Source: Octopus vulgaris (lineage: Eukaryota). From it: a DNA stretch of 64,000 nt. This document shows positions 5,809-64,000 of this stretch, one piece after another. The notes beneath the pieces are model-generated. The model ran no database searches. It was given only the letters and a program-made list of their open reading frames with translations, and was not told the origin of the DNA. A program made the translations under genes and the position numbers. The DNA is taken from assembly GCA_951406725.2 (NCBI GenBank), contig OX597833.1, positions 1,426,001 through 1,490,000 on the forward strand, given 5' to 3'. Positions within the stretch are counted from its first letter, which is position 1, and the number at the start of each line of letters is the position of its first letter.

Positions 5809-5844
<36 letters not shown>

Positions 5845-6032
5845 GGATAAGATCGTTAATTTAAAAAATAAAATAATAATTTTATCAAGTGGTCAGTATG
5901 GAAAAGATAACGTTCAAAGTTAATAATTATTAAAATTATAAATTAGCGTATCTACGAGATACTACCATGCTGAAAATAGCAGCCATGATCTGACTCTAAA
6001 ACCACCTTAATTGTCCATATATCATATATAAA

Positions 6033-10342: not shown

Positions 10343-11389
10343 ACATGCATACGCACATTCATTGATGTTAATTCATAGGTTGGCGTTGGAGGGAGATTAC
10401 TGAGGTATGTAGAAAGGTATGAGAGAAGATAGAGGGAGCTCGACAGATGGGGTTTGAGTCAGTAGTCACCGCAGTAGTAGTCATGAGTCCCTTGACAACC
10501 AATGCTGGTATGTTTATGTCCCATTAACTTAGCGGTTTGGCAAAAAAGACAACAGAGAATAAGTACTAGGCTTACAAAGAATAGGTCCTGGGATCGATTT
10601 GTTCGACTAATTGCGGTACTCCAGCGTGGCCGCAGTCAAATGGCCGAAACAAAAAAAAAACAGAATGAAAGAATAAAGGAATATACATACGTGCCCCAGC
10701 ATGGCCACAGCTCGTGAGCTGAAACTAGATAGAAAAAGATAAAATAAAAATAAAAAAATAAAATAAAAAATACATATTAAAGGCGGTGCTCCAGCATGGC
10801 CCCAGTCAAATGACTGAAACAAGTAAAAGAGTAATATACAGATAAAGGGTGAAATATAATTAATTTAATAAAATCAACAAATTTCACCAAGTATTGTTTC
10901 GGTATGGAAAAGGACCATATTCGGTAAAAGTTTATATAATTATAACAAAGAGGGTCTTTGCAACGAGTTGCAAGACCACATACCGAAAGTATTAGAAATA
11001 GCAACCAAAGGACTTTTATTTCTTTTACTACAAAAATATGTCTCTACAGACAGCAGCGTTTGCAACTTACTATGTGGCAAAAAAAGAAGAAAAATAACGA
11101 AATCAAAGAGTCCACGGACAATTATGGACGTACGTTTCTGGATTAGAATCAAAGATTCATTTCTTTCATCAACATAAAATTCCGGTACATAAATCTAGAA
11201 ATGCTAGGAAATCTTACCCTCCATATTTCCGACCAGGCGACATCGGAGCATACAGAAGCTAATCAGCATATCCACATTTATATAGACAAGTGAATTCGTA
11301 TCTCCCTCCAGAATTTTTTTCACACGTGAGTTACAAATACATACATATATATATATGTGTGTGTGTGTATGAATGTACGTATGTACGTA

Positions 11390-15430: not shown

Positions 15431-15551
<121 letters not shown>

Positions 15552-15782
15552 CGTGACCGACCAGGCTATCAGATGTTGTTACACATCGCTGGTCACAATG
15601 CGCTTCGCATTATTTTAGCCTTCGAAATGAATCCACCCCGCTGGCTAAGCGAGCAGGCCAATATATATATATATATATATGGTAAAAACGGTAAGATAAC
15701 AAAAGAAAGAAAGATACCTCAATATTATGTAAATAGAGGAAATTTATCTATAAAATAATATGTTACATTTACTCAATAGTCA

Positions 15783-15845
15783 AGATAAAACTCTCAGTTT
15801 CAGATGCCGAACTGGAAATCCACAACACCATCTCTTCGGTTATCT
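15783..15845 (-). ncRNA. Type I hammerhead motif, U4C core variant (element about 15680-15853 within TA repeats)
   Basis: AGATAA-CCGAAGA-GATG...CATC-T-GAAA-CTGAGAG-TT-TTATCT, with 6-bp stem I. Confidence 0.6.
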
Positions 15846-15850
15846 GGCCA

Positions 15851-15901
<51 letters not shown>

Positions 15902-31571: not shown

Positions 31572-31889
31572 TATATGTAATATATATGTTTGGAGAGATA
31601 GCTTGTTTATCCAGGTGGATAGCGTACTAGCTCTCAATTATGTTCCAGTTAACGGCTAACCACGACGATCGTTATCTAATGCCTGAGAGTACATTTAGTT
31701 GCTAGTCTCTCCGTGAATTCTTTCAATGGGTAATTCCGTCCCCTCGTCGCTGGACAGTAAACATTGTCTGAGGTGTGTATAAATATTAATAACAAACATT
31801 AAGGAGATTTATGCATGCACAAAATTTAATTTTAAAGTTATACACAGCATATTTTAATGACCATCCTAGAAGGATGACCCAAATGGATG

Positions 31890-31963
31890 GATCCTGATGA
31901 ACAATATCACAAGGTTGCATTTGCAACAGTGATTAGTCGCTGCAGCGGAAACACGTGTCGGTC
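31890..31963 (+). ncRNA. Type I hammerhead ribozyme, canonical core, branched stem II
   Basis: GATC-CTGATGA-(ATCAC..GTTGCA tt TGCAAC..GTGAT; CGCTGCAGCG)-GAAA-CACGTG-TC-GGTC, with stem III palindrome ACACGTGT. Confidence 0.7.
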
Positions 31964-32026
31964 ATTATAATACGCTGTATATAACTATAAAAGTAATTTG
32001 TGGATGTACACGTCTCCATACTCTTA

Positions 32027-32083
<57 letters not shown>

Positions 32084-38722: not shown

Positions 38723-39117
38723 ACGAATGGAGACTGGTTTGCAGGAGGATATGCAATAACATTCTTTATAAACAAAAGAAAAATCTAAGATGATGAAGGA
38801 CCGATTCTTAATGGATGTCACGTGTGTCTGGACCCGGATATGGAGGCATGCAGAGACAGACAGTTGTAATGAGGACCCGGCATTCAAGAGAGGATCTCAT
38901 TCATACGCTCACGTATCGGCCTCGATGTAGATGCGCAGTGACTATATGCTTAACGTGAACTTAAGCAAGCGTAGCTGTTCCCCTCTCTGTAATGCCCTCA
39001 TGGCAAATTTTCATGAAATAAAGTAGCTTGCCCAACAACCACATGGTTTCTGGTTCAGCCCCACTGCGTAGCACCTTGTAAGTGGATTTGGTAGACGGAA
39101 ACTGAAAGAAGCCCTTC

Positions 39118-39149
<32 letters not shown>

Positions 39150-39152
<3 letters not shown>

Positions 39153-39790
39153 ATTTTTTCTAGAATTTTTTCTAGAATTTTTTTGCTACCCTTATATTTA
39201 TTAATTAATGATTTTTTGGCTAATTTTGAAATTAAATTAAATAGTCTTTGACTATCTTTCCTTTCTCACTGGACTGCTGGTAGCGGAGAATTTTTTCTAG
39301 AATTTTTTTGCTACCCTTATATTTATTAATTAATGATGTTTTGGTTAATTTTGAAATTAAATCAGCAGTTTGTATTTGCTGCTGAGAAGACCGCGCAATT
39401 GCGGTAGATTTTGAAAATTTATAGCATATAGACTTGAGGCTTCCTTACCATCGCCTCGTGGGTATATACTCGTCCTAGGCTTCTTTGCTGACGAGGCACG
39501 CCAGTTGTAAATAAATTTAATTTAATTTAATTAATTTGTTTACTAAAGTTTGCCGAAACTATGCATAGTCCAGAGATGAAAGGGGTAAACATTTTTATTT
39601 CTCTTTCAATTTCAGAATTACAACTATTAGCAGTTTGAGTTTGGCTGCTCTTTCTAGTGAGTCGAATGTCCTATTATGACAATTCCTTATATCTTTGAAT
39701 GTATATTATATAGTCTTTCTCACTGGACCGCTGGTAGCGGAGAATGTTTTCTAGAATTTTTTTGCTACCCGTATATTTATTAATTATATA
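39150..39790 (+). mobile_element. Partial-tandem pLTR/retrozyme-like element (family H1)
   Basis: Direct repeat CTTTCTCACTGGA..GCTGGTAGCGGAGAAT..GCTACCC at 39261 and 39715 (period 454 bp) with a central HHR. Confidence 0.75.
39482..39576 (+). ncRNA. Type I hammerhead ribozyme, intact canonical core
   Basis: TCTTTG-CTGACGA-GGCA..(GTAAATAAATT/AATTTGTTTAC)..TGCC-GAAA-CTATGCATAG-TC-CAGAGA, with 12-nt palindrome ACTATGCATAGT and a GUC site at 39568-39570. Confidence 0.85.
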
Positions 39791-40261
39791 TATATATATA
39801 TATACATATGCATGCGTGTGTATTTGTGTTTCCACGCCACCGCTTGACGATCTGTGCTGATGTGATTGCATCTCCGTCAACTAGCGGTTCAGCAAAAGAG
39901 ACCGATTGAAGAAGTACCACGTTTGAAAAAGAAATACTGGGGTGAGGGTGTCAATTCATTTTATTAAAAGTTCAAGGCGGTGACCCAGCATGGCCGCAGT
40001 TTCATGACTGAAATAAATAAAAGATGAAACAAAAATAAAAAGATTAAGGGCCGACAAAAAAAAGGAAGTGAGACAGATCTGAACTCTGTCCAAATTTGTT
40101 TGTCTGTCTCTCCCCCTCTCTGTCTCAATCCTCCCTCTCTCTTTGACTCTGTTTGATCCCCCACCACTACCACCACACACACACCATGCAACTCCCTCAC
40201 TCACAAGCAGAGCTGTAAATTTATTTAGAGTTTGGCTGTTTGTGATTGAAGTTAGCAAATT

Positions 40262-40512
40262 TAAGTTAATTTAAAGAAGACCAATGTGTTAAAGGAGCTA
40301 CTCTTTGAAGTTTATTAGATATCTATAAGCCAATGAATATCCAAATATGGTTATCTCGATGCAAGAAAAGCCGATGTACACACACACACACACATACACA
40401 CACACACTCATACACATACACACACATATATATATATAAACTGTAAGGCCTATCTATAAATGCTCTAATATCTACACAGCCTTGGTTTTTTTATCTTATC
40501 ACGCAAAAAATT

Positions 40513-40580
<68 letters not shown>

Positions 40581-40703
40581 GGCTTTTCTTGCGTTGAGAT
40601 AACCATATTTGGATATTCATTGGTGAATATCTAGGCTTAGGGATATCTAATAAAATTCAAAGAGTAGCTCCCTTAAGACCGTGCTTTTCTTTAAATTAAC
40701 TTA
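40262..40703. mobile_element. Foldback/MITE-like element with about 120-bp inverted arms around CA/TA repeats
   Basis: 40262-40379 is the imperfect reverse complement of 40575-40703 (e.g. GAATATCCAAATATGGTTATCTC / GAGATAACCATATTTGGATATTC). Confidence 0.75.
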
Positions 40704-40754
40704 TATGTAAAAACATACCTTAGGAATGAGAACCCAGGTTCGAAATTTCCCCAA

Positions 40755-40800
40755 GACACCCGATGAAGGCTGGAGGGTATATCAGCCGAATCGTTGTGTT
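40755..40800 (+). ncRNA. Degenerate minimal hammerhead motif
   Basis: GACAC-CCGATGA-A-GGCTG gagggtatat CAGCC-GAAT-CG-TT-GTGTT, two core changes (U4C, A15.1U). Confidence 0.55.
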
Positions 40801-41352
40801 AACAAGTAACAAGGTGAGGACAAATATCCGTCAAATGTAAATAATGTAAAGGATATAAATAATGTAAATAATGTACATAATTCCTCATCTCTTAAATATA
40901 GAACTGTCTTATCCTTATGAAACTTTTGAATTGGGTCGTTGACTGCAAACGTCTTCGTTGCGACCTGAAAAGAAATATGTGTTGATTGCTGACATCAGGA
41001 ATGCGAGTTCCTAGAAATTTTGACGGTGCGCATAGGGAAATATTTGCAATTGTTATAAGTTTACAAACTGAGGAAACTTATATTATTTTTCTAGAAGGAC
41101 TGATGAAGATATTTCTGAAAACAAACACTCCTTCAAGCATTAAATATTTTTCATCGCGTATATATATATATATATTTGTGATTTAGCTCAGGCCTCAGGC
41201 TTTCCAAGTTTCAGCGTTTTCCGTTAAATGCTCTCTCCCCCTTTTCTCTCCATCTCTCTATCTCTGCTGCGAGGAAGGCTCCAGCATCCTAGCTTTATAT
41301 GTATATCAGTGTGTATATACATTATATACACACTAATATATATCATGCATAC

Positions 41353-41405
<53 letters not shown>

Positions 41406-41469
41406 TGTGTTTTATGAGTTTGTGTATTTGTGCGTGCGTGCATGAGTGCGCACATGCGTATCCGTGTGT

Positions 41470-41835
41470 GGAGGCGCAATGGCCCTGTGGTTAGGGCAGC
41501 GGACTCGCGGTTTCGACTCCCAGACAAGGCGTTGTGAGTATTTATTGAGGGAAAACACCTAAAGCTCCACGAGGCTCCGGCAGGGGATGGTGGTGATCCC
41601 TGCTGTACTCTTTCACCACAACTTTCTCTCACTCTTACTTCCTGTTTCTGTTGTACCTGTATTTCAAGTGGCCGGCCTTGTCACTCTCTGTGTCACGCTG
41701 AATATCCCCGAGAACTACGTTAAGGGTACTCATGTCTGTGGAGTGCTCAGCCACTTACACGTTAATTTCACGAGCAGGCTGTTCCGTTGATTCGGATCAA
41801 CCGGAGCACTCGTCGTCGTAACCGACGGAGTGCTT
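41470..41835 (+). mobile_element. SINE family C variant, full length
   Basis: GGAGGCGCAATGGCCCTGTGGTTAGGGC head, tail GTCGTCGTAACCGACGGAGTGC. Confidence 0.88.
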
Positions 41836-42299
41836 CCATCCATCCGTGTGTGTGTTTGTCTATTTGTGTGTGCATTTGTGTGTTCATGTAAGTCGTGTGT
41901 GTACACTTTATGTTTATACCTTTTCTTCAAATTTGGTTTCCCCCCCTTTACCTGTTCAAATTTCGGTGATCAATTTTGTATCAAGTGCAATAAGGCTAGA
42001 TTTTTGAAAACATTTTCTTCTACGATGACTTTCCTGCATTGTTTCTCTCTATAGGTATATCTGCGTAGAAATTTTCCCCATTCTCGTAATTGGATTTTAT
42101 GTAAATCATGAGTCTAACCAACCTCGCATACTATTCCCTACCGATACTTCGTATGCAGCAACATTCAACGGAGATACATACGGCAAGGTCTTACCACTGA
42201 TCCCATAACTCTTTTAAATACGTGTAAAATCTTGTAAAGACCACAACTTAACCTCGTGATAACAATAAAAAAAGAAAGAGGATTAGAGAATATACTCGG

Positions 42300-42755
42300 A
42301 GTCTGTCGATTATGAGGGCGATTATTCCAGTTGATCAAATCAAGGGAACAGACTGCTCGAGAAATTAATGTGCAAGTGGTTGAGCACTCCACAAACACGC
42401 GTTCCTTTCACAAAGTTTTGTGGGAGACTCAGTGTGACAGGGCTGACCCTTTGAATTACAAGTACTGCTCATTTTTGAGTGGTACTTGTAATTGTATATA
42501 TATATACATACATTTACATACATATATATACACATATATATATATATATATGTGTATATATATATATACATATTATATATGTATATATATATACAAACAC
42601 ATATATATATATGTGTATATATACATATTATATATGTATATATATATATACACACATATATATATGTGTATATATATACATATTATATATGTATATATAT
42701 ACACACATATATATATATATGTATATATGTATATATATATTATATATGTATATAC

Positions 42756-42810
<55 letters not shown>

Positions 42811-42908
42811 TATATACTTTGCAGAGGTCTCTCAGCAGGTATCACAACCCGTCGCCAGGAATTGAACTCACGGCCTTACGATCATGAGCCGTTGACTATT
42901 ACTAAACC
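42300..42908 (-). mobile_element. Old SINE family C copy split by a (TA)n-rich tract
   Basis: Tail at 42300-42482, head at about 42845-42908. Confidence 0.7.
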
Positions 42909-42909
42909 A

Positions 42910-42944
<35 letters not shown>

Positions 42945-43406
42945 GCATACTTACATACATACGCCCACACTCACACACACACACACACACACACATATGC
43001 TTTGTCATGGAAACTAATGGTTCAATGAATATACCGTGTGTATCTTCTTTCTCCTTAACGTTTCTCTCTTCATTATTCCGATTACCGCTTGTTTTGTTTG
43101 CTGCTCAGACAGAATGCTTTTGCAGGCACATCGTCCATTTTCACGTTCTTAGTTCAAATTATGCCGATTCGACTTTGTTTTGCATTATTTCAGGGTCGAT
43201 AAATTAAATAAGTAGGTTGATGAATAAGTATCTGGACTGTTGCCATAGTAATGAGGCTAAAGCACGCAGAGTAGAGTTGCTTGGCACACATTGACATTAA
43301 ACAGTGTTGTTCATGCGGTTTAAGTTTTAACGTTGTGATACCTCCACATTTTACAGCAGTGCTTGGAAGGAACGTGTGTAGCGTGTGATTGTCTCATTGA
43401 CAAGGC

Positions 43407-43469
<63 letters not shown>

Positions 43470-43470
<1 letters not shown>

Positions 43471-43715
43471 CAATTGAAGCGTGGAAGGTGTATGTAAGCC
43501 ATTTAAGAAACACACAAAAGCCGTTCGATTCACTTCAACATTTAAGTTTAATTTTTCAAAATATTTTCGTCGCTATAAGACCGCGACCTGTTCACTGACA
43601 AAACTCCATGCTGCATCTGAGTTTCTTAAATGGCTTACGAACACCTTCCACGCTGCAATTGTTTTCGTTTCAGCACACGATCTCAGATCAAATCACTTGC
43701 TATGCAAGTACATCT

Positions 43716-43718
<3 letters not shown>
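43470..43718. mobile_element. Penelope-like pLTR mini-element with inverted ends inside (TA)n
   Basis: Inverted repeat 43471-43511 / 43621-43661, homologous to 3708-4339. Confidence 0.75.
43553..43601 (-). ncRNA. Hammerhead motif with G3:C8 swapped core
   Basis: TTGTCA-GTGAACA-G-GTCGC ggtcttata GCGAC-GAAA-ATAT-TT-TGAAAA. Confidence 0.6.
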
Positions 43719-43792
<74 letters not shown>

Positions 43793-43820
43793 AGTATTGT
43801 GGTTTAGTTCACAGGTGATG

Positions 43821-43856
<36 letters not shown>

Positions 43857-44518
43857 ATATGTATGTATATATATATCTATGTATGTACATGTATATACAG
43901 ATGTGCGTTTGAGTGTGCGTGTGTGTTTGTATATATATATATATATATTTATATACACACATATGTGTGTACATATATATGTGTGTTTATATATATATAT
44001 ACATATATTTATATACACGCATATGTGTGTACATATGTGTGTGTGTACGTATGTGTGTGTGTGTATAAGGCAAGCGAGTATTTTAGTTTAGTACACAATA
44101 GCAGAAACTGCATTATTGATGCTGTTTGCACTGAGAATCGAAGTCAGAGTTCACAGCAAATATACAAGCCATAGAAATAATTACAAAAACGCACTAATTA
44201 AAACATCTTAATTGCATAATTCACATAAGCTTAATTATTAGTTATTGTTCTCAGATATTCAACTGCTACTCACGAAGGAGTGGGGGGGGGGGGTAACTAG
44301 ACGTTTCCAAAAGGAAGCGTGTTATTGAGTACATTAGATTCTGGTAGCGTCTGTAGCTTCGGCAGTGCTGCTGTCTTCACCGATGTGGCTACACTAGCGT
44401 TCTATTGATGAGGCTGTAACGACAGTTGCCAAGGATGATCATTATTGAATACGGTTGTTTTGTGTTGTGTTTGTAGACCTTGTTTTCAATACGGCTGTAT
44501 ATATATATGTATATATAT

Positions 44519-44557
<39 letters not shown>

Positions 44558-44572
44558 GTATATATAAATATA

Positions 44573-44620
<48 letters not shown>

Positions 44621-44699
44621 AATATATATACATATATATTTTAAATCGATGTTGCATTTCCTTATATATTCCATATATATATACGATATATATATAATA

Positions 44700-44791
<92 letters not shown>

Positions 44792-44994
44792 TTTGCAGAG
44801 GTCTCTCAGCAGGTATCACAACCCGTCGCCAGGAATTGAACTCACGGCCTTACGATCATGAGCCGTTGAACTAACTACTAAATCATACATATATATACAT
44901 TTATTAGTACCGTTTCAAGGTTAGATGATGTTTTCGATAACAACATGAATGCTAATACTACACTGGTTTCTACTGGTGTACGTTTTTTCTGTCA

Positions 44995-45199
44995 TTTTTT
45001 TTACTGGTTTCAGTCATTTTGACTGTGGCCATGCTGGAGCACCGCATTTAGTCGAGCAAATCGACCACAGGACTTATTCTTTGTAAGCCTAGTACTTATT
45101 TTATCAGTCACTTTTGCCGAACCGCTACGTTATGGGAACGTAAACACACCACCATCGGTTGTCAAGCGATGTTGGGGGACAAACACAGACACACAAACG

Positions 45200-45269
<70 letters not shown>

Positions 45270-45433
45270 CGACGGGCTTCTTCCAGTTTCCGTCCACCAA
45301 ATCCACTCACAAGGCTTTGGTCGGCCCGAGGCTATAATTGAAGACACCTGCCCAAGGTGCCACGCAGTGGGACCGAACCCAGAACCATGTGATTGGTAAG
45401 CAAGCTACTTACCACACAGCCACGCCTACGCCT
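44995..45433 (-). mobile_element. SINE family A, full length
   Basis: Reverse complement of the family A consensus. Confidence 0.9.
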
Positions 45434-45584
45434 ACTGTTGTTATTGCTTGCTTTTGGTGTAGATGCAGTTTCCTTTTAAGTTCAAGTTCTTAGTGACGGA
45501 TTTATTTAAGCAGGAATAATTCTATCATAGATTAACCTAAGCCTATAACTAATAAAAAATGCAATTACAATCTGTTGTTACCTA

Positions 45585-45848
45585 CATTCCGAAAAGCTCT
45601 ACCTGCGACGATTTCATCTCAATCGAAGGAGAGGAGCTTTCTCCGTCCGGGTTGCGGATCCGTGGAACAAGCTGCCAGACGAGATGGTGAAGATGCCGAC
45701 GACCGCTTTGTTCAAAGCCTCCCTGGACCTCAAGTGGCCTGAACTCTTCACATGAACACCACCCTGTACTTAACTCCATGTCCCCCTACACGGCCTTGCT
45801 ATTTGCTTTTGAGCCAAATTAACTAACTAACTAACTAACTAACTACTA
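45585..45848 (+). mobile_element. 5'-truncated CR1/L2-group LINE 3' end
   Basis: Open frame HSEKLYLRRFHLNRRRGAFSVRVADPWNKLPDEMVKMPTTALFKASLDLKWPELFT* (stop 45753-45755) carries the FSxRV..WNxLP..FK..LD motif. Short 3'UTR and (AACT)n tail follow. Confidence 0.88.
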
Positions 45849-46446
45849 AGCCAATAAAACGACATCTCAGATTTTCGGTGAAGACGAAGCTAAGTGAAGC
45901 CTCCTTGTAGGAGTCTAAGAGAAAAAAGAACCCAGTTAAAATCTACCGGCAACTAGAAGGAACACTTCTGTGCTCTCTCAACAAATGCGAAGAGTGTGGT
46001 CAAACAGTAAAACTTTAAAAAATAGACAAAATCAGACAAATATCAGAGATGCCTGGGGATGAACATTACCCGTATCCTGGTGAAAAGATGCGTGCCACCG
46101 GGTTTGACAGCCGCAATGTAATACTTGAATGGCTGTTACACCAGCAAATCGACCCCAGAACTTATTCTTTGTAAGCCTAGTACTTATTCTATCTGTCTCT
46201 TATGACCAACCGCTAGCCTACGGGGGCGTAAACACGCCAACATCGGTTGTCAAGGAATGGTGGCGGGACAAACACAAGCACACAAATGTATACATACATG
46301 CAGATACACATACATACATAAACACACACATATATACGATCGGCTTCTATCGGTTTCAGTCTTACAAGGCTTAGGTCGACGCAAGGCTATAGCAGAAGAC
46401 ACTTACCGAAGCTGACCCCGGAACCTTGTGGCTGGAAAGAAACCTT

Positions 46447-46532
<86 letters not shown>

Positions 46533-46814
46533 TAACAGTGAAGAAGTTTCAATGAAAATAATAATGCAATACGAAAGTATTGCTTTCCAGTAAAAGATAG
46601 CCCGTAAGGGTAAAATTATACATATAAAAGTAAATAAATGGCACAACGAAGTACCGACATTTACTGGGAAATAGCAATCGTAATAAATCGACGCTATTGT
46701 ATAGCTTCACTGCGTATATACTAGCAAAGACGTGTGTGTGTGCAACAAACATGAAAAAAATTTGTCTTACCTCTAGGAAGAACATCTGAAAAATGAAAAA
46801 CCTAGAAACGGATA

Positions 46815-46885
46815 ATGCAGGACCGGTTTCAGACTCTTCAAATACGTTTGACAACGTAGATTTGATTTGCCTTCATCAGCTGCAT
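46815..46885 (-). ncRNA. Type I hammerhead ribozyme, intact canonical core
   Basis: ATGCAG-CTGATGA-AGGC..(TCAAAT cTACGTT gtca AACGTA TTTGA)..GTCT-GAAA-CCGG-TC-CTGCAT, with stem III palindrome ACCGGT. Confidence 0.88.
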
Positions 46886-47302
46886 ATACCTGGACAAAAT
46901 TTCATATGTTGCCACTTCTATGCCAGTACACTCGTCTGAACGCCAAAACGTTAACAGAACGAGAACAGTGAAGAAAGCTTCAATGATATATTCTATAGAT
47001 ATATTATATCTATGCATATGTATATTTATGTGTGTTTGTGTATGTATGTATACATGTATGCATGTATTTTTGTGCGAGTATATATGTATATACACATCCT
47101 GCACTATATATTATGAGTAAGAGAGAAAAGTCAAGGAAGATCGATAAAAAACGAATTGTAATTCTGTCTACTTAAGAGTGTGCCTGTATATACATAGATG
47201 TAAATGTGTCTATATACACCTTAGGTACGTATACGTACACGCAGAGGAGCACATGAACACATGAACACCTATACGTGCATACACAAACACATACATACTT
47301 AC

Positions 47303-47333
<31 letters not shown>

Positions 47334-47410
47334 TCCTTAATTACATCTCTATGCATATCTGTGTATGCAAGTATATGTATGTATATATGTATTTATGTAT
47401 GTATATTATG

Positions 47411-47460
<50 letters not shown>

Positions 47461-48018
47461 TGTATGTATTTATGTATGTATGTATGTATGTATGTATGTA
47501 TTTATGTATGTATCTATGTATGTATGTATGTATGTATGTATGTACGTATGTATGTATGACTATATGTGGGTATGCTCATGATATATGTCCGTGTGCACGA
47601 GGTGTGTCTGAATCAATTTCTGTTTCTATTCCGGTAATTCCGTTTCAATTAATACTTGAATATTTCTTTAATTAAATCCTCTACATTTATTCATTATTCA
47701 TTATTCACTTCCTCACTCAGATTAAAACTGGCGAAAGTAGAATATTTACTTTTTGATGTTTCGTGTGTTGTTGTTGTCGATGTTCAAGTCGCTGTATGTG
47801 ATACCATTGTTATTGTGCTAATTGTTCCGCCCAGTTTTTCCCTGTATTTTATAACCGTTTGTGGTACGGTAGTTATATTGTTGTTTGTTATTGTCTTTAA
47901 TTTACACTTTTTACTTTTCTAATTATTCTCCAAGCTTGTTCATTATTAGCAATGGATAGCATACACTCACACAAACACACATAAAGTATCTAAACATGTG
48001 TACATATATAAGTGTATA

Positions 48019-48104
<86 letters not shown>

Positions 48105-48110
48105 TATATA

Positions 48111-48154
<44 letters not shown>

Positions 48155-48155
<1 letters not shown>

Positions 48156-48545
48156 TCTTTTATTTGTTTCAGTCATTTGGACTGCACCCATGCAGAAGCA
48201 CCACCTTTAGTCGAGCAAATCGACCCTAGGACTCATTCTTTGTGAGTCTAGTACTTGTTCTATCGGTCACTTATGCCGAACCGCTAAGTTACGGGGACGA
48301 AAACACACCAGCATCGGTTGTCAAGCGATGTTGGGAGGACAAACAGACACACAAACACATACACACACATACATATATATATATAAACATATATACGACG
48401 GGCTCCTTTCAGTTTCCGTCTACCAAATCCACTCACAAGGCTTTGGTCGGCCCAAGTCTCTAGTAGAAGACACTTGCCCAAGGTGACTGAACCCTGAACC
48501 ATGTGGTCGGTAAACAAGCTACTTACCACACAGCCACACCTATGC

Positions 48546-48547
<2 letters not shown>
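48155..48547 (-). mobile_element. SINE family A
   Basis: Reverse complement of the family A consensus. Confidence 0.88.
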
Positions 48548-48578
<31 letters not shown>

Positions 48579-48594
48579 CATACATATATCGTGG

Positions 48595-48830
48595 CTCTCC
48601 GTCGGTTGCGACGACGAGGGTTCCAGTTGGTCCGATCGACGGAACAGCCTGCTCGTGAAATTAACTTGTAAGTGGCTGAGCACTCCACAGACACGTGTAC
48701 ACTTAACGTAGTTCTCAGGGAGATTCAGCGTGACACAAAGCCGGCCCTTTGAAATATAGGTACCACTCATTTTACCCAGGTGAGTGGGCTGGAGCAACGC
48801 TAAATAAAGTGTCTTGCTCAAGGACGCAAC
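48595..48830 (-). mobile_element. SINE family C, 5'-truncated
   Basis: Matches 7387-7635. Confidence 0.85.
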
Positions 48831-48918
48831 TCGTCGCCGACGCAGCTTATTTCCGGCAACAGAGAGGATGCCGGTAAAACCTCGAACAAATTTATCAAAA
48901 TTCATTTAAACATGATAA

Positions 48919-49360
48919 ATAATATTAGGGTAATAAGAATTATAGAAATTTCTACTACCAGTGGCCTAGCGGATTTGAAAAGTTAGAATATACAAATAAT
49001 GAGTTTACATGCGGAATCGATCACGTTGTGTGTATATTTAAAATTTAAAGGCCACCTACTGATGAAGACTGGCCTCAGTAAATCTTCTTTTACTGAAATA
49101 AGTCAGAAACCATGGTCTAAGAACTAAATTAGATGATAAATGTTTTTAATTTTCATTATCTTCGAGAATTTATCCCTAATTAGTGGTTTAAGTTGTTTAC
49201 TGCTCTTTCTAGCGCAAGGCATTCCTATGATGGAAGCCTCTTAATATGTTTTAATGTACACGATATTTTATATGAATAATATATAGTCTATTGACTAAAT
49301 TTTTTTGCGCTAGGCCAGTGGTAGTAGAAATTTCTATAATTCTTATTACATTAATATTAT
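48919..49360 (+). mobile_element. Family H1 mini-element with about 53-bp inverted termini
   Basis: Inverted repeat 48919-48971 / 49308-49360, internal HHR, and a TTTACTGCTCTTTCTAG motif. Confidence 0.75.
49055..49121 (+). ncRNA. Type I hammerhead ribozyme, canonical core
   Basis: CCTA-CTGATGA-A-GACT..(TCAGTAAA/TTTACTGA)..AGTC-A-GAAA-CCATGG-TC-TAAG, palindrome ACCATGGT, one stem I mismatch. Confidence 0.72.
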
Positions 49361-49554
49361 ATATATATATATATACTGACGTTCAGTTTTTGAATTTCTG
49401 AATTTTAGTTTTCCCTTGAAATTTCTCTTTTTTAAAGTAAGTTTTTCTGTTGTTTACAGTTTTTTCAATTGTGAAGTTTGTATACATTGGCAGGTACGCA
49501 CCTACTTAATTTTATTTTATAGTGCAATTTAAATGTGTAGTGGCAATGAAAGGC

Positions 49555-49965
49555 ATGTTTGCATATTTGGACAGTCAGGAAGAAAAGAAAGATAAATATT
49601 TTCACACAAAATTGAAGATATTAAAGTTTTAAAATTTTCTAGAGATGTTCGTTTGTATGTTAGATCAGAGAAGACTGTAGCGTTTTTGCATTAAAAAGGA
49701 TGTTTACATTTTCGAATATTCAGAGAGAAAGGAAATAAAAGAAAAAAAGGTTAAAATTTTCCCAGAAAATTTAGATATTAATGTTTTAAAATTTATTAAA
49801 GATGATTTTTTTGTTTGTCCGAACAGAGAAAACTGCAGTGTTCTTAGAATGAAAATGTTGTTTACATTATCGAATACTCAGGTAGAAAGGACAGGTTAGT
49901 TGTTCAGAAAGGTAGTAGATATTAACACTTTTAAAGCTGATCGTTTGTGTGACGAAAATTGCAGA
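49555..49965. repeat. Old degenerate tandem repeat of about 150-158 bp (roughly 2.7 units)
   Basis: AGATATTAA at about 49616, 49773 and 49917. TGTTTACATT..CGAATA.TCAG..AGAAAGGA at 49701 and 49859. Confidence 0.75.
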
Positions 49966-49977
49966 TATGTAAGTTTA

Positions 49978-50188
49978 TTCTTTTACTTGTTTCAGTCATT
50001 TGACTGCGGTCATGCTGGAGCACCGTCTTTAATCGAGCAAATCTACCCCAGAGCTTATTCTTTGTATTCCTAGTACTTATTCTACCGGTCTCTTTTGCGA
50101 ACAGCTAAGTTACGGGATGTAAACACACCAGCATCGGTTGTCAAGCGATGTTGGGGGGGGGGGCAAACACAGACACACACACATACGC

Positions 50189-50251
<63 letters not shown>

Positions 50252-50415
50252 CGACAGGCTTCTTCTAGTTTCCGTCTACCGAATCCACCCACAAGGATCT
50301 AATCGGCCCGAGTGTATAGTAGAAGACACTTGTCCAAGATGCCACACAGTGGGACTGAACCCAGGACCATGTGGTTGGTAAGAAAGCTACTTACCACACA
50401 GCAGCTCCTGCGCCC
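49978..50415 (-). mobile_element. SINE family A, full length
   Basis: Reverse complement of the family A consensus. Confidence 0.9.
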
Positions 50416-50534
50416 TTAACTTATTTTGAATGAAAGTCAAAATACAGGAAATTGTAGATATTCCAGGCTTCGAGAGTTATCTTTCATTTTTTTCTGTTGG
50501 GTTGTATTAATGTTTCTTTAAGTGTTTCTGTGTC

Positions 50535-51279
50535 TCCGGAAGCGGAGGCTCTAATCTATGTTACCAAAGAGCAAGCATTGAAAACTAATTACATCAAGTG
50601 TAGAACAAACAACACATCAGAAAGTATTAAGTGCAGAATTTTTAGACAAATTGGTGAAATCGTATGGCATATTACCAGTCAGTGTATGCCACTAGCCCAG
50701 AAAGAATATAAGAGACGTCATGAGAATATACAAAGGATTGTCCATTGGACACTTTGCAACAAGTATGGACTTGACAACAAAAGAGTGGTACGAACATAAA
50801 CCCGAAGGCATCACTGAAAATGATAATGCAACGATTCTATGAGATTTTATGATTCAGTGCAACCAAGAGATAGAGAATAGGAAACCAGACTTTGTGTTAA
50901 TTGAGGAAGAAAGCAAACTATGCTGGATCATAGATATAGCATGCCCAGCTGATAACAAGGTATGCAATAAGGAAGAGAGAAAAATCGATAGATATGACAG
51001 GTTAGCTTGGGAAGTTAAGCAGTTGTGGTCGATAAAAAAGGTGGCAGTAGTACCAATTCTTGTCTGAGCCATGGGAACAGCGAGCAAAAATCTTGAGAAA
51101 TACATAGAACAAATAGGGGCTCAAATAAGGATGGAGCACTTGCAGAAAACAGCAGTGCTTGGAACCGCTCGAATACTCCGCATAGTGCTCAAAAAATAAG
51201 GGGTGTTACCTTTTTTCATTGGTAGTGAACAGCTGACTCCGTAGTACATCTGCGTTAGAAGCTGTGCAAAGATAACAAC

Positions 51280-51365
<86 letters not shown>

Positions 51366-51390
51366 TAATAATAATAATATAATAATAATA
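50535..51390 (+). pseudogene. 3' part of an R4/Dong-clade RLE LINE (CCHC knuckle and restriction-like endonuclease) with (AAT)n tail
   Basis: CRI..GEIVWHITSQC.PLAQKEYKRRH and RKPDFVLI..IIDIACP..K..Y..L motifs, with frameshifts and stops. Confidence 0.9.
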
Positions 51391-54255
<2,865 letters not shown>

Positions 54256-54741
54256 TAGCAATAACAACAACAATAATAGCCTTCGCAGGAGTTTTCAAGC
54301 ATGACCAGTGTCATTTTGGTCTGCTGGCTGTGAACAGCAGACATTTTTCATCATACCTAGCAAAATATACTGTGATTTTCCATCACATCATAATAAGAAT
54401 AAAGATAGATATGATGGTGAAGGGGTATGTGTTTATAATCTGACAACGACAAGGACTCCTGTGTCGTAAATATACATCGTTGACGCTGTTAATGGCGGAT
54501 TTAGAAGCAACGAAATAGAAACCTCAACAATAAAGGACAATCGCATCACCATTAACATCAAGAGAAACAATAAGAGAAAACAAAACATCGACAAGTGGCA
54601 ACACAAGAAATAATAATAATAAAAAAACGAAAAGAAAATATAATACAATGGAAGCTGGAATAATTTAAAATGTTAAGAACGACAAGTTCAAAAGCAAAGA
54701 AGTTGAGAATGTCAACGAAAAGTCGAACGAAGCAAGTAGCG

Positions 54742-54845
54742 CCATCATCATCGATATCATCATCATCATCATCATCACCATCATCACCATCATCACCATC
54801 ATCATCATCATCATCATCACCATCACCATCATCATCATCATCATC

Positions 54846-54876
<31 letters not shown>

Positions 54877-54883
54877 TTATCAA

Positions 54884-54915
<32 letters not shown>

Positions 54916-54929
54916 GCATCATTACCATC

Positions 54930-54980
<51 letters not shown>

Positions 54981-55087
54981 GTCGTCGTCGTCATCATCAT
55001 CATCGTCGTCGTCGTCATCATCATCATCATCACCATCATCATCATCGTCGTCATCACCATCATCATCATCATCATCACCATCATCAC

Positions 55088-55119
<32 letters not shown>

Positions 55120-55144
55120 CCATCATCATCGTCGTCGTCATCAC

Positions 55145-55175
<31 letters not shown>

Positions 55176-55239
55176 GTCGTCGTCGTCGTCATCATCATCA
55201 TCATCATCATCATCATCGTCGTCGTCATCATCGTCGTCG

Positions 55240-55271
<32 letters not shown>

Positions 55272-55324
55272 GTCGTCGTCGTCGTCGTCATCATCATCAT
55301 CATCATCATCGTCGTCGTCATCAC

Positions 55325-55355
<31 letters not shown>

Positions 55356-55356
55356 G

Positions 55357-55394
<38 letters not shown>

Positions 55395-55480
55395 GTCGTC
55401 ATCATCATCATCATCATCATCATCTTCATCACCAACATCGTTATCTACGTCGTCGTCGTCGTCGTCGTCAACGTCATCAT
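54742..55480. repeat. (CAT/CGT/CAC)n trinucleotide array
   Basis: Directly visible. Confidence 0.97.
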
Positions 55481-56690
55481 TAGCAAGAACAGCAGTGAAA
55501 CAAAAGAAAAAGCACAATAACACAAACAATACAATATGACGAGAATAAAAGAGCGGCAAATATCAATTACAACTATAACAACAACAACAACAACAACAAC
55601 AATAACAGCAACAACAACAATAATAACATCATGAATATTGATGAGAGCATCAACAAAAATAACGCAAACACCATTAAAAAATATCACTCATTTCAAAAAT
55701 ATACTTAAGATTGAGTAATGGGTTGGCATTCTTAAAAGGCCCCGATTCGTTCTCGCGAAATCGAGGCTCGCGCATAGAAACATACGAGAAGTGACGGGAA
55801 ATGTATGACAGTTTAACTATTAGTTGTATAGAAAATGAGACCTGAAGATTAGTCAAATTTATATACGTAACAACAATGATTATTTGATGGTTTTCCCAGC
55901 AGAGAAAATGATAAACATAAGGAAGAAAAGAGCGACAGACAACAGCTGAAGCGGCAGCAACGCGTGTAGGATATTGTTTTCAGAGGAGAAGCGGTTGCAA
56001 TCCAGAAGATAACAAAAGAAAAAAGAAAAAAATCCCCCAAAACTCGCCTTCTACTTGAGAGATATGAAGCTTTATCCCCGATGTACCACCAGTTTATTTT
56101 CCTACAGGGGAAGAGAGAACCGAGGCACGGATGCAGCAGAAAACTGCCCTAGCAGTTAAAAAGAAGGGGAAAATGCAAAAAATGAACTCGAACAAATTAT
56201 TTATAAAGGGCAAACTTTTGCAGCGATATGGGATTTGCTGTTCTGCAAATTGCATAAGAAGAGCTTCTATATATACCGAACATTGTGTGTGTACGAAGCA
56301 GAGAGGAACAATCTACCGATTGAGAAGTGACATTAAATATTTAAAAACTTTGAACGAAATTCTAGTAATAAAATCAATACCAGCGGTGTATGAAGAGCAA
56401 TGAGAACTAACTAGAAACTTGGAAGCATATCCCATTCACAACGGATAGCAGTTTTATTCGATAACCTAGCTGCAGTCATGGTGTACTTTACCCCCCGATA
56501 GGATTTCTAATCCTGTATTGTACCCGTGATAACTTTATCCGATTACATTTGTTTCGTTCTCATTTGATTATTCTCCAGTATAAACTGGCTCGTGTCATTT
56601 CGTATCACGCAATTAAAACGTTTCATTTCTATATTTTCCGTTCAGTCGATATATCTTACGTGTATTTATTCTATCGAAATTTCTCTCTCT

Positions 56691-56757
<67 letters not shown>

Positions 56758-56759
56758 AT

Positions 56760-57186
56760 CAATATAGGGTGGCAAAAAAATTTTGTAGAATCTTATTGCC
56801 ACCAGCGGCCTAGTGGGAAAAAATTAAATAGTCATAAACCATTTTTAAGTTCAACATCACAATCAAGGAACGGCCATAATAGGCCATTCACCCACTAGAA
56901 ATAACAGCCAAAAGCTTCAACCGCAAAATAACATCAATTCCGTAAACCAGGAGAAAATTAAAAAAAACATTTACCCTGTAATTTCTTATACGATGCACCG
57001 TTTCGTCTACTGTTTAATGGTAAACTAACCTGATTAAGAAACGGTGCATCGTATAAGAAATTACAGGGTAAATGTTTTTTTTAATTTTCTCCTGGTTTGC
57101 GGAATTAATGTTATTTTGCGGTTGAAGCTTTTGGCTGTTATTTCTAGTGGGTGAATGGCCTATTATGGCCGTTCCTTGATTGTGAT
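56760..57186 (-). mobile_element. Family H1 mini-element forming a 149-bp-arm palindrome
   Basis: Arms 56856-57004 / 57038-57186 (2 mismatches, 33-nt loop). Colinear with 39555-39790. Confidence 0.8.
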
Positions 57187-57405
57187 ATATATATATATAT
57201 ATACAACAATTTTGTGAGAAGGGGGTGAGTCAATTACATCAAGTCCAGTGTGAAACTTTTACTTCATTTATCGACCCCGAAAGGATGCATGGCAACGTCG
57301 ACTCTGGCGCTATTCGAACTATAGATCTTGCCCGGTGTTCTATCGATTCGACCAGATCACTGCCTTACTACTTCTACTACTACTACTACTACTACTACTA
57401 ACAAC

Positions 57406-63540: not shown

Positions 63541-63960
63541 TACGAATTGGTATCACAAAGTTCCCGGACTAGTTCTGTAGCACACCAACAGATGGCAGCA
63601 CACCGTTGTGTGTATATCGAGAGCTTGTGGTGACCTCCATGCGGCAGTGTGCCGAGAGACATCACAATGTTTACTTCGTAAGTTATGAAATTTGTGTTTT
63701 TGTGATCACGTGTATGGTGGAGTCTGCGATTTTGTCATAGACGGAAACAAAGAGTCAGTATAAAATTTTGTTTTAAACTTGGGAAGTCTGCTACAGAGGC
63801 ATTGAGCATGATTCGACAAGGTTATGGCGACGAGGAAATGGGTCAAGCACAATGTTTCGAGTTGCACAAGATGGTTATTTCGAAGGAGACGAGGCTAAAA
63901 TTAAGTTATTGTTTCTCATTAAACACAAATAGTCCAGGGACAATTCGATACGACCGCGCA
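63541..63960 (+). mobile_element. Internally deleted mariner transposon
   Basis: Degenerate 31-bp TIRs (63541-63571, 63930-63960). N-terminal HTH KQRVSIKFCFKLGKSATEALSMIRQGYGDEEMGQAQCFELHK is joined to the C-terminal YFEGD. Confidence 0.88.
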
Positions 63961-64000
63961 CTAGCTATTAGGACTGAGGTGTTTAGGTGTTCATAAGTTC

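Follow-up and report, generated by a model that had tools for sequence, protein, structure and literature searches.

The 64,000-nt window of Octopus vulgaris DNA analysed here has a GC content of 35.7% and is rich in microsatellites. It contains five hammerhead-bearing repeats with an intron-like segment (A at 39.3k, B at 57k, C at 49k, D at 46.7k and G at 11k), a count that leaves out candidate F and a possible family at 15680-15856. Another hammerhead element, E, ends ~80 nt after its ribozyme and is uninformative on the segment. The elements and their segments, in window coordinates, are as follows.

39261..39786, plus strand: element A, a 454-nt unit plus a 72-nt direct terminal repeat
39482..39576, plus strand: hammerhead of A, with its core at 39488, a long AU-rich helix II, a palindromic helix III and a predicted cut after 39570
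39585..39657, plus strand: intron-like segment of A, GT..AG, 73 nt, 14 nt past the predicted cut
56760..57186, no single strand: element B, a head-to-head inverted pair
57068-57147, plus strand, and 56895-56974, minus strand: intron-like segments of B
48915..49364, plus strand: element C, with a 57-nt inverted end (4 mismatches) and a hammerhead core at 49059
49136-49212, plus strand: intron-like segment of C, 77 nt, starting with AT
46526..46986, minus strand: element D, with a hammerhead core at 46879 and a 31-nt direct terminal repeat
46770 (donor) to 46664 (end of the AG), minus strand: segment of D, ATG at +4
10830..11345, minus strand: element G, newly found; outer limits approximate
11172, minus strand: hammerhead of G, first core base changed
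11070 (donor GTAAGT) to 10992 (end of the acceptor-like motif, AA), minus strand: segment of G, 79 nt
5840..6010, minus strand: candidate F, flanked by (TA)n tracts and truncated at its 5' end; its acceptor-like AG ends at 5970, ATG at +2
31782-32038: hammerhead element E, core at 31894 on the plus strand

Motif and fold together define a type I hammerhead in A, C, D and E, with the core, three helices and a palindromic helix III, for which cleavage is a prediction. Rfam searches returned no match at gathering score, the hammerhead of A included, and D matches Hammerhead_HH9 at E 0.0045, below gathering. Over positions 39100-57300, 162 matches were obtained at E ≤5; the 150 listed were nearly all microsatellite or fold-back noise, with none naming the 3' domain of the elements. 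An earlier note on this DNA had placed a ribozyme ahead of the segment in the copies of one family, H1. This holds for A and C, while B possesses only the 3' half of the hammerhead, as both of its arms (56856-57004 and 57038-57186, with 2 mismatches in 149) are 5'-truncated inside the ribozyme. Profile and BLAST searches of the window gave no further H1 copies.

All insertions are embedded in, or adjoin, tracts of (TA)n or of other AT-rich sequence, and A is placed between (TA)n tracts. Direct end repeats are present in A and D, and head-to-head inverted, 5'-truncated pairs in B, C and E. In A, positions 39261-39332 equal 39715-39786, the unit end joins the unit start twice, and partial copies occupy 39150-39260. 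The left arm of B is ~95 nt longer than the right one and the ends of C are equal, where a one-sided tail of 30-40 nt was looked for. An insertion bias of this kind is reported for the Neptune and Naiad clades (available text of PMC8557442), and partial tandems and inverted truncated copies are described for Penelope-like elements (available parts of PMC8557442 and PMC3846280). Octopus and squid are both reported to carry Penelope families (PMC8967140 and PMC6962438, both in part), and TA-targeting Naiads in Octopus appear in the accessible supplement of PMC8557442. A Penelope-like origin of the repeats is supported, mainly by the hammerhead, the insertion structures and the TA-repeat targets. 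The earlier note had suggested the same origin from the intron-like segment, and it stands mostly on features other than that segment.

Among 139 window reading frames scanned with Pfam (138 of 220 complexity-filtered frames plus one added), none matched GIY-YIG and no host exon or Penelope-type ORF was found; no autonomous partner element was found in the window either. The sole reverse transcriptase among the scanned frames is that of a LINE (51788-53278), which has no sequence in common with the elements by BLAST. This LINE is broken and extends over 51480-54068 on the plus strand (RVT_1, E 1.3e-20), interrupted by trinucleotide repeats, with a second fragment at 50458-50799; its C-terminal part, as we take it, resembles the restriction-like endonuclease of the R4/Dong type. 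The one other Pfam match among the scanned frames is a mariner transposase HTH fragment at 63706-63993 on the plus strand (Pfam HTH_48, E 8.6e-05, below the curated cut-off).

Further observations concern single pieces of the window. The first base of the inverted arm of E is the one that directly follows the predicted cut (31960) of its ribozyme, as would result from copying a self-cleaved RNA; with an arm identity of 78%, it is one old case. The fold-back of B at 56947-57095, if transcribed, would give ~150 bp of nearly perfect double-stranded RNA, and Rfam scores it, below threshold, as a miRNA-like hairpin. Between (TA)n tracts at 15680-15856 on the plus strand, CG|GTAAGA at 15691 is followed by TTTCAG and then directly by an ATG at 15803 (113 nt). 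In this ribozyme-less piece a helix begins at the AG and the covariance model described below gives E 0.14; judged by its sequence, it is possibly another family of the same layout. It adjoins a strongly folding 112-nt piece, also between (TA)n tracts, at 15549-15660, which is single-copy in the window.

The GT at 39585 with the AG at 39657 (73 nt) and the GT at 57068 with the AG at 57147 (80 nt), both reported in the earlier note, were recovered, and the mirror copy in B (56974-56895, minus strand) is added here. The degenerate version that it had placed at ~49137-49212 corresponds to a homolog at 49136-49212 (77 nt), which starts with AT rather than GT. Overall, the segments are 73-80 nt long in four of the five repeats (A, B, C and G) and 107 nt in D, with GT and AG both intact in A, B and D. 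The donor of C has AT in place of GT, a change that keeps a predicted pair, and the acceptor of G has AA in place of AG, combined with a perfect GTAAGT donor. As reported, an AG|GTAAGA lies downstream of the hammerhead of D, at 46770 on the minus strand, with an acceptor-like AG ending at 46664; four further AGs lie 50-77 nt past this donor, and the segment of A holds four internal AGs. The note had called D unrelated. BLAST indeed finds no similarity and the covariance model gives only E 2.2, but the same motif and helix make D probably related.

The donors read GG|GTAAAC/T in A and B, AG|GTAAGA in D and TA|GTAAGT in G, with only GTAA as a common core; the variants otherwise sample the U1-matching consensus. 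As a background, GGTAA, GTAAG and GTAAGT occur 70-115 nt upstream of 4.1%, 4.5% and 1.6% of 12299 sites, respectively. A donor of the quality seen in A (≤30 nt from the site) with a pyrimidine-rich YAG 60-110 nt on is found by chance at 169 of the 9470 non-microsatellite sites sampled (1.8%), a test whose own pyrimidine filter B and D fail. The acceptor-like motif alone, which was defined from these copies, has seven matches in the window, compared to 2.7 expected under a Markov model; they fall in A, B (twice), C, D, F and G. Near the acceptor, 12-14 of 17 positions are pyrimidines and the tract is short. A branch-like word is located at -43 in B and -37 in C, and A has no YTNAY within 60 nt of the AG. 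An ATG follows the acceptor by 4-11 nt in A, B, D and G (background 17%), the first ATG of C being at +15, and ~100-135 nt separate the ATG from the end of the terminal hairpin.

Alignment of A, B and C revealed invariant columns at 8 of 9 positions up to the AG, compared to 2 of 8 immediately beyond it and 7 of 24 inside the segment; comparison of 8/9 with 7/24 gives a Fisher p of 0.004, for regions picked after viewing the alignment. Much of this conservation, which the earlier note had proposed to look for at the GT/AG positions, is explained by the helices described below. A scan of metagenomes for the pattern gave 25 loci with no relatives among them. One of 26 metagenome matches had an upstream hammerhead-like core word, situated inside an unrelated coding frame. 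Ten loci with chance pattern matches (L001, L003, L006, L007, L013, L020-L022, L024 and L025) lie within a multi-copy repeat whose copies show many C/T and G/A differences, resembling fungal repeats that undergo repeat-induced mutation, and which is unrelated to the elements.

The acceptor lies within a predicted 3' RNA domain, comprising the pre-acceptor hairpin, a long-range helix, the post-acceptor hairpin and the terminal hairpin.

39629..39649, plus strand: hairpin inside the segment of A, 39629-39635 pairing with 39643-39649
39653..39661, plus strand: 5' strand of the long-range helix of A, containing the acceptor AG and the next 4 bases
39664..39685, plus strand: hairpin after the acceptor of A, with the ATG at 39666; partly broken in A
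39719..39727, plus strand: 3' strand of the long-range helix of A, just before the terminal hairpin
39733..39769, plus strand: terminal hairpin at the 3' end of A, the presumed region of reverse-transcription start
56891-56899 with 56809-56817: helix of the minus arm of B
49208-49216 with 49306-49314, plus strand: helix of C
46667-46660 with 46594-46587, minus strand: helix of D
10988-10979 with 10906-10897, minus strand: 10-bp helix of G
10888-10848, minus strand: terminal hairpin of G

The TTTGGCTG stretch noticed earlier before the acceptor is mostly the 3' arm of the hairpin at 39629-39649, in which all four listed family substitutions keep the pairing and the two listed insertions fall in the loop. 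The long-range helix joins the end of the segment to a strand 62-94 nt downstream of the AG. Consensus folding of A, B and C paired 27 of 27 helix cells, with 3 of 9 columns changed on both sides; a slid partner paired 33-56% of cells, and 11 of 500 shuffles paired equally well. D is a fourth variant at the same place, giving 35 of 36 cells paired over A-D. All four exon-side pairs vary with compensation among these copies, in contrast to the invariant pairs C-G at -4, A-U at -2 and G-C at -1. Predicted pair probabilities of the helix core are 0.57-1.0, and single-copy shuffles gave p values of 0.028, 0.036, 0.0005 and 0.09. This covariation is based on three aligned copies together with D and G, which were placed by hand because MAFFT put the helix partner of D out of register.

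Over the whole 3' domain, 91.5% of 117 cells are paired and 8 of 42 pairs show two-sided change, a value reached by 1 of 500 shuffles, with controls that lean in the fold's favour because the structure was derived from the same three sequences. The consensus fold has -25.9 kcal/mol on the ribozyme strand against -15.3 on the other, with 18 G-U cells against one A-C cell, a comparison biased by the structure having been taken on the ribozyme strand. A purine-rich hairpin with weaker support covers the donor too. An alternative in which the donor pairs upstream of the ribozyme was rejected because the sequence there is variable.

A covariance model of the 3' domain, built without ribozyme or donor, gave 59 matches in the window at E ≤10. 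Ranks one to seven go to A, B, C and their repeats, after which come F (6007-5865, E 0.031) and then G (11010-10846, E 0.077); rank 31 of 59 is taken by D at E 2.2, below significance. Candidate F could form 8 of the 9 helix pairs, at a predicted probability of only 0.06. G, the second-best of the 52 matches outside A, B and C, carries a hammerhead-like motif 180 nt upstream and the donor GTAAGT, both outside the model. Its 10-bp helix has a probability of 0.44-0.96 and its terminal hairpin is present as well, but the helix starts four bases past the acceptor-like motif, and where the others have the AG in the helix, G has GG, opposite a compensated partner. Folding thus predicts a long-range helix covering the acceptor AG in four of the five copies.

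For the splicing test, positions 39333-39786 were compared at 80% likeness with assembled contigs of sequencing runs, presumed RNA for X11, X13 and X17 (two studies) and presumed DNA for X4; none of the 24 listed runs is recorded as RNA, which says nothing about expression, and only the A subfamily was covered. Family A is present in runs of four organisms, with shares up to 0.31. The earlier note had looked to junction reads as its check; no splice joint across the segment was seen in any of the four runs, two joints at a skipped AT-rich repeat in X4 having been set aside. The absence of spliced RNA cannot be shown in this way because contigs drop rare forms, the RNA status is presumed and only the A subfamily is covered. 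Unspliced family sequence is present in the runs: among 32 of 187 pieces listed, contigs cross the donor unspliced in X11 (record 5), X13 (records 11-13) and X17 (record 17), and the acceptor in X11 (record 7) and X17 (record 19). With no joint seen and no host exon among the scanned frames, the earlier idea that host transcripts may receive splice sites from these elements found no support.

Among the 40 listed of 79 substitutions, none falls at 39583-39590 or 39645-39663, and directly ahead of the donor there are four such sites and a deletion of one base. All four runs have their depth peak at 39637-39668, and contigs of divergent sequence depart at 39637-39642 and ~39675; therefore, the most widely shared block spans the AG. 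The divergent subfamily in X11, X13 and X17 continues differently past the ATG-containing hairpin (after 39675), and might be closer to an autonomous partner.

We consider that the segment is probably a retained, vestigial spliceosomal intron of the 5' UTR of short non-autonomous Penelope-like elements, in which the fold rather than splicing is under selection. Descent from an intron is supported at the sequence level by differently flanked donors at matching distance, lengths near 75 nt, the fixed AG and the close ATG. The retained intron proposed in the earlier note is upheld as far as the three donor forms and the nearby ATG go, but not by junctions, and two of the five copies lack GT or AG. 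The short pyrimidine tract, the internal AGs and missing branch-like word in A, and the order of ribozyme and intron, which is the reverse of that in D. virilis Penelope, also count against it. A vestigial intron in protein-less elements is favoured because it accounts for the evidence on both sides.

The alternative with the most weight, tentative and clearly less probable, is that there is no intron: the segment would be only part of a protein-bound structured RNA domain, whose GTAA and YAG, kept for structure or for contact with the protein, resemble splice sites by chance. The donor, the pre-acceptor motif and the AG all lie in predicted helices, C and G each lack one splice dinucleotide with their helices intact, and the runs combine a lack of joints with a most shared stretch (39637-39668) that crosses the AG. 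However, chance resemblance sits poorly with donors that lie at matching distance in three different flanking contexts, the perfect GTAAGT among them having come from the blind search, with AG pairs that do not vary in A-D, where the four pairs beyond them do covary, or with an ATG close behind the acceptor in four of five copies, given that a 75-nt Penelope intron is known.

Active splicing in a fraction of the short-element transcripts, with the helix regulating the choice between spliced and unspliced forms, appears quite unlikely. It agrees with the three copies that keep both GT and AG, with the two blocks around the splice sites that are free of listed substitutions and with in silico removal of the segment, which lowers the exon-side pair probabilities from 0.57-1.0 to 0-0.25; the lack of joints in the three presumed-RNA runs speaks against it weakly, as contigs drop rare forms, and an intron-less form was not seen in the presumed-DNA run X4. 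Very unlikely is that the copies are non-LTR retrozymes cycling as circular RNAs, with folds serving circle stability and a segment without a role of its own: the double end-to-start joining in A, the low GC, the type I hammerhead and the 454-nt unit near the retrozyme range (available text of PMC7229834) fit, but each insertion has one core, complete hammerhead units never follow one another in the window, the insertions B, C and E are truncated and head-to-head, and no going-back joint on the A unit was seen in the run contigs. This last account overlaps with the vestigial intron because retrozymes derive from pLTRs (10.64898/2026.07.22.740005, in part).

Under the vestigial-intron reading, each element would be a pseudo-LTR-plus-tail module consisting of the ribozyme, the intron, the ATG, ~100-135 nt of a former ORF start and the terminal hairpin. 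The protein acting on it would be an autonomous Penelope-like RT-endonuclease, absent from the window, that attaches to the folded 3' domain, begins cDNA synthesis close to the terminal hairpin and integrates the product at (TA)n. It would copy unspliced sense RNA, since both splice sites are predicted to be largely base-paired and protein-less copies need no splicing. By tying up the end of the segment, the modelled helix could help explain how the intron survives copying. In a more specific form, which we regard as unlikely, the last intron bases would be half of a helix needed for template recognition by the protein, such that only unspliced sense RNA transposes and spliced RNA, its helix half having lain in the intron, could not be copied into the genome. 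If true, this would be a structural answer to intron retention in Penelope-like elements and an argument against the antisense-template model; the coupling of helix and acceptor is not universal, as the helix of G starts past the acceptor.

Introns and hammerheads in Penelope-like terminal repeats are already known (available parts of PMC4209133 and PMC8557442). The Penelope intron is 75 nt long and lies in the 5' UTR (PMC8557442, in part), and in D. virilis Penelope it precedes the ribozyme, with its end at the 5' side of hammerhead helix I (PMC4209133, in part). Similarly, the octopus repeats have, in genomic copies, a terminal module that bears a hammerhead and keeps a short segment (73-80 nt) from GT to AG, just ahead of an ATG, and in both the intron's 3' end touches an RNA helix. 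Unlike Penelope, the octopus segment starts 14-56 nt after the predicted cut, and its end is predicted to pair with a strand 62-94 nt downstream. Moreover, the Penelope intron is spliced and its element encodes an RT-endonuclease (accessible text of PMC8557442 and PMC4209133), whereas the octopus copies are protein-less and their intron is putative. A search of the literature, covering few subscription papers and none of the Penelope intron papers from 2003, 2006 and 2008, found neither an intron described as lying behind the ribozyme nor a helix reported to cover the 3' splice site.

Animal non-LTR retrozymes represent non-autonomous pLTR derivatives (10.64898/2026.07.22.740005 and PMC7229834, both in part), and share with the octopus repeats short, AT-rich, non-coding units, a type I hammerhead and a palindromic helix III. 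They are recognized by two or more consecutive units with complete hammerheads (available text of 10.64898/2026.07.22.740005), whereas the octopus copies are single, partial-tandem or inverted, with units of ~430-520 nt; the available parts of PMC7229834 and 10.64898/2026.07.22.740005 make no mention of an intron-like segment. In Poseidon_Ac of Anolis, reverse transcription starts in a stem-loop 111-118 nt into the ORF, a hammerhead is present and insertions run past the cut site (PMC11167929, in part). The octopus elements likewise have an end defined by a stem-loop ~110-120 nt past the ATG and AT-rich targets, and the likeness of their ~100-135 nt from ATG to hairpin end to the 111-118 nt of Poseidon_Ac is, by analogy, a lead only. 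Unlike in the octopus elements, the Poseidon_Ac hammerhead overlaps the start codon, with no intron between ribozyme and ATG in the available description (PMC11167929).

Intron retention in Penelope-like elements is described as unexplained (PMC8557442, in part), with two open models, an antisense template or an unspliced sense template (PMC3846280, in part). A helix over the 3' splice site, with covariation between families and a better fold on the sense strand, offers a small, mutable handle on this retention, and the modelled fold marks out an RNA domain of these elements as a candidate for protein binding. The octopus arrangement so far remains a variant of the known Penelope-like layout.
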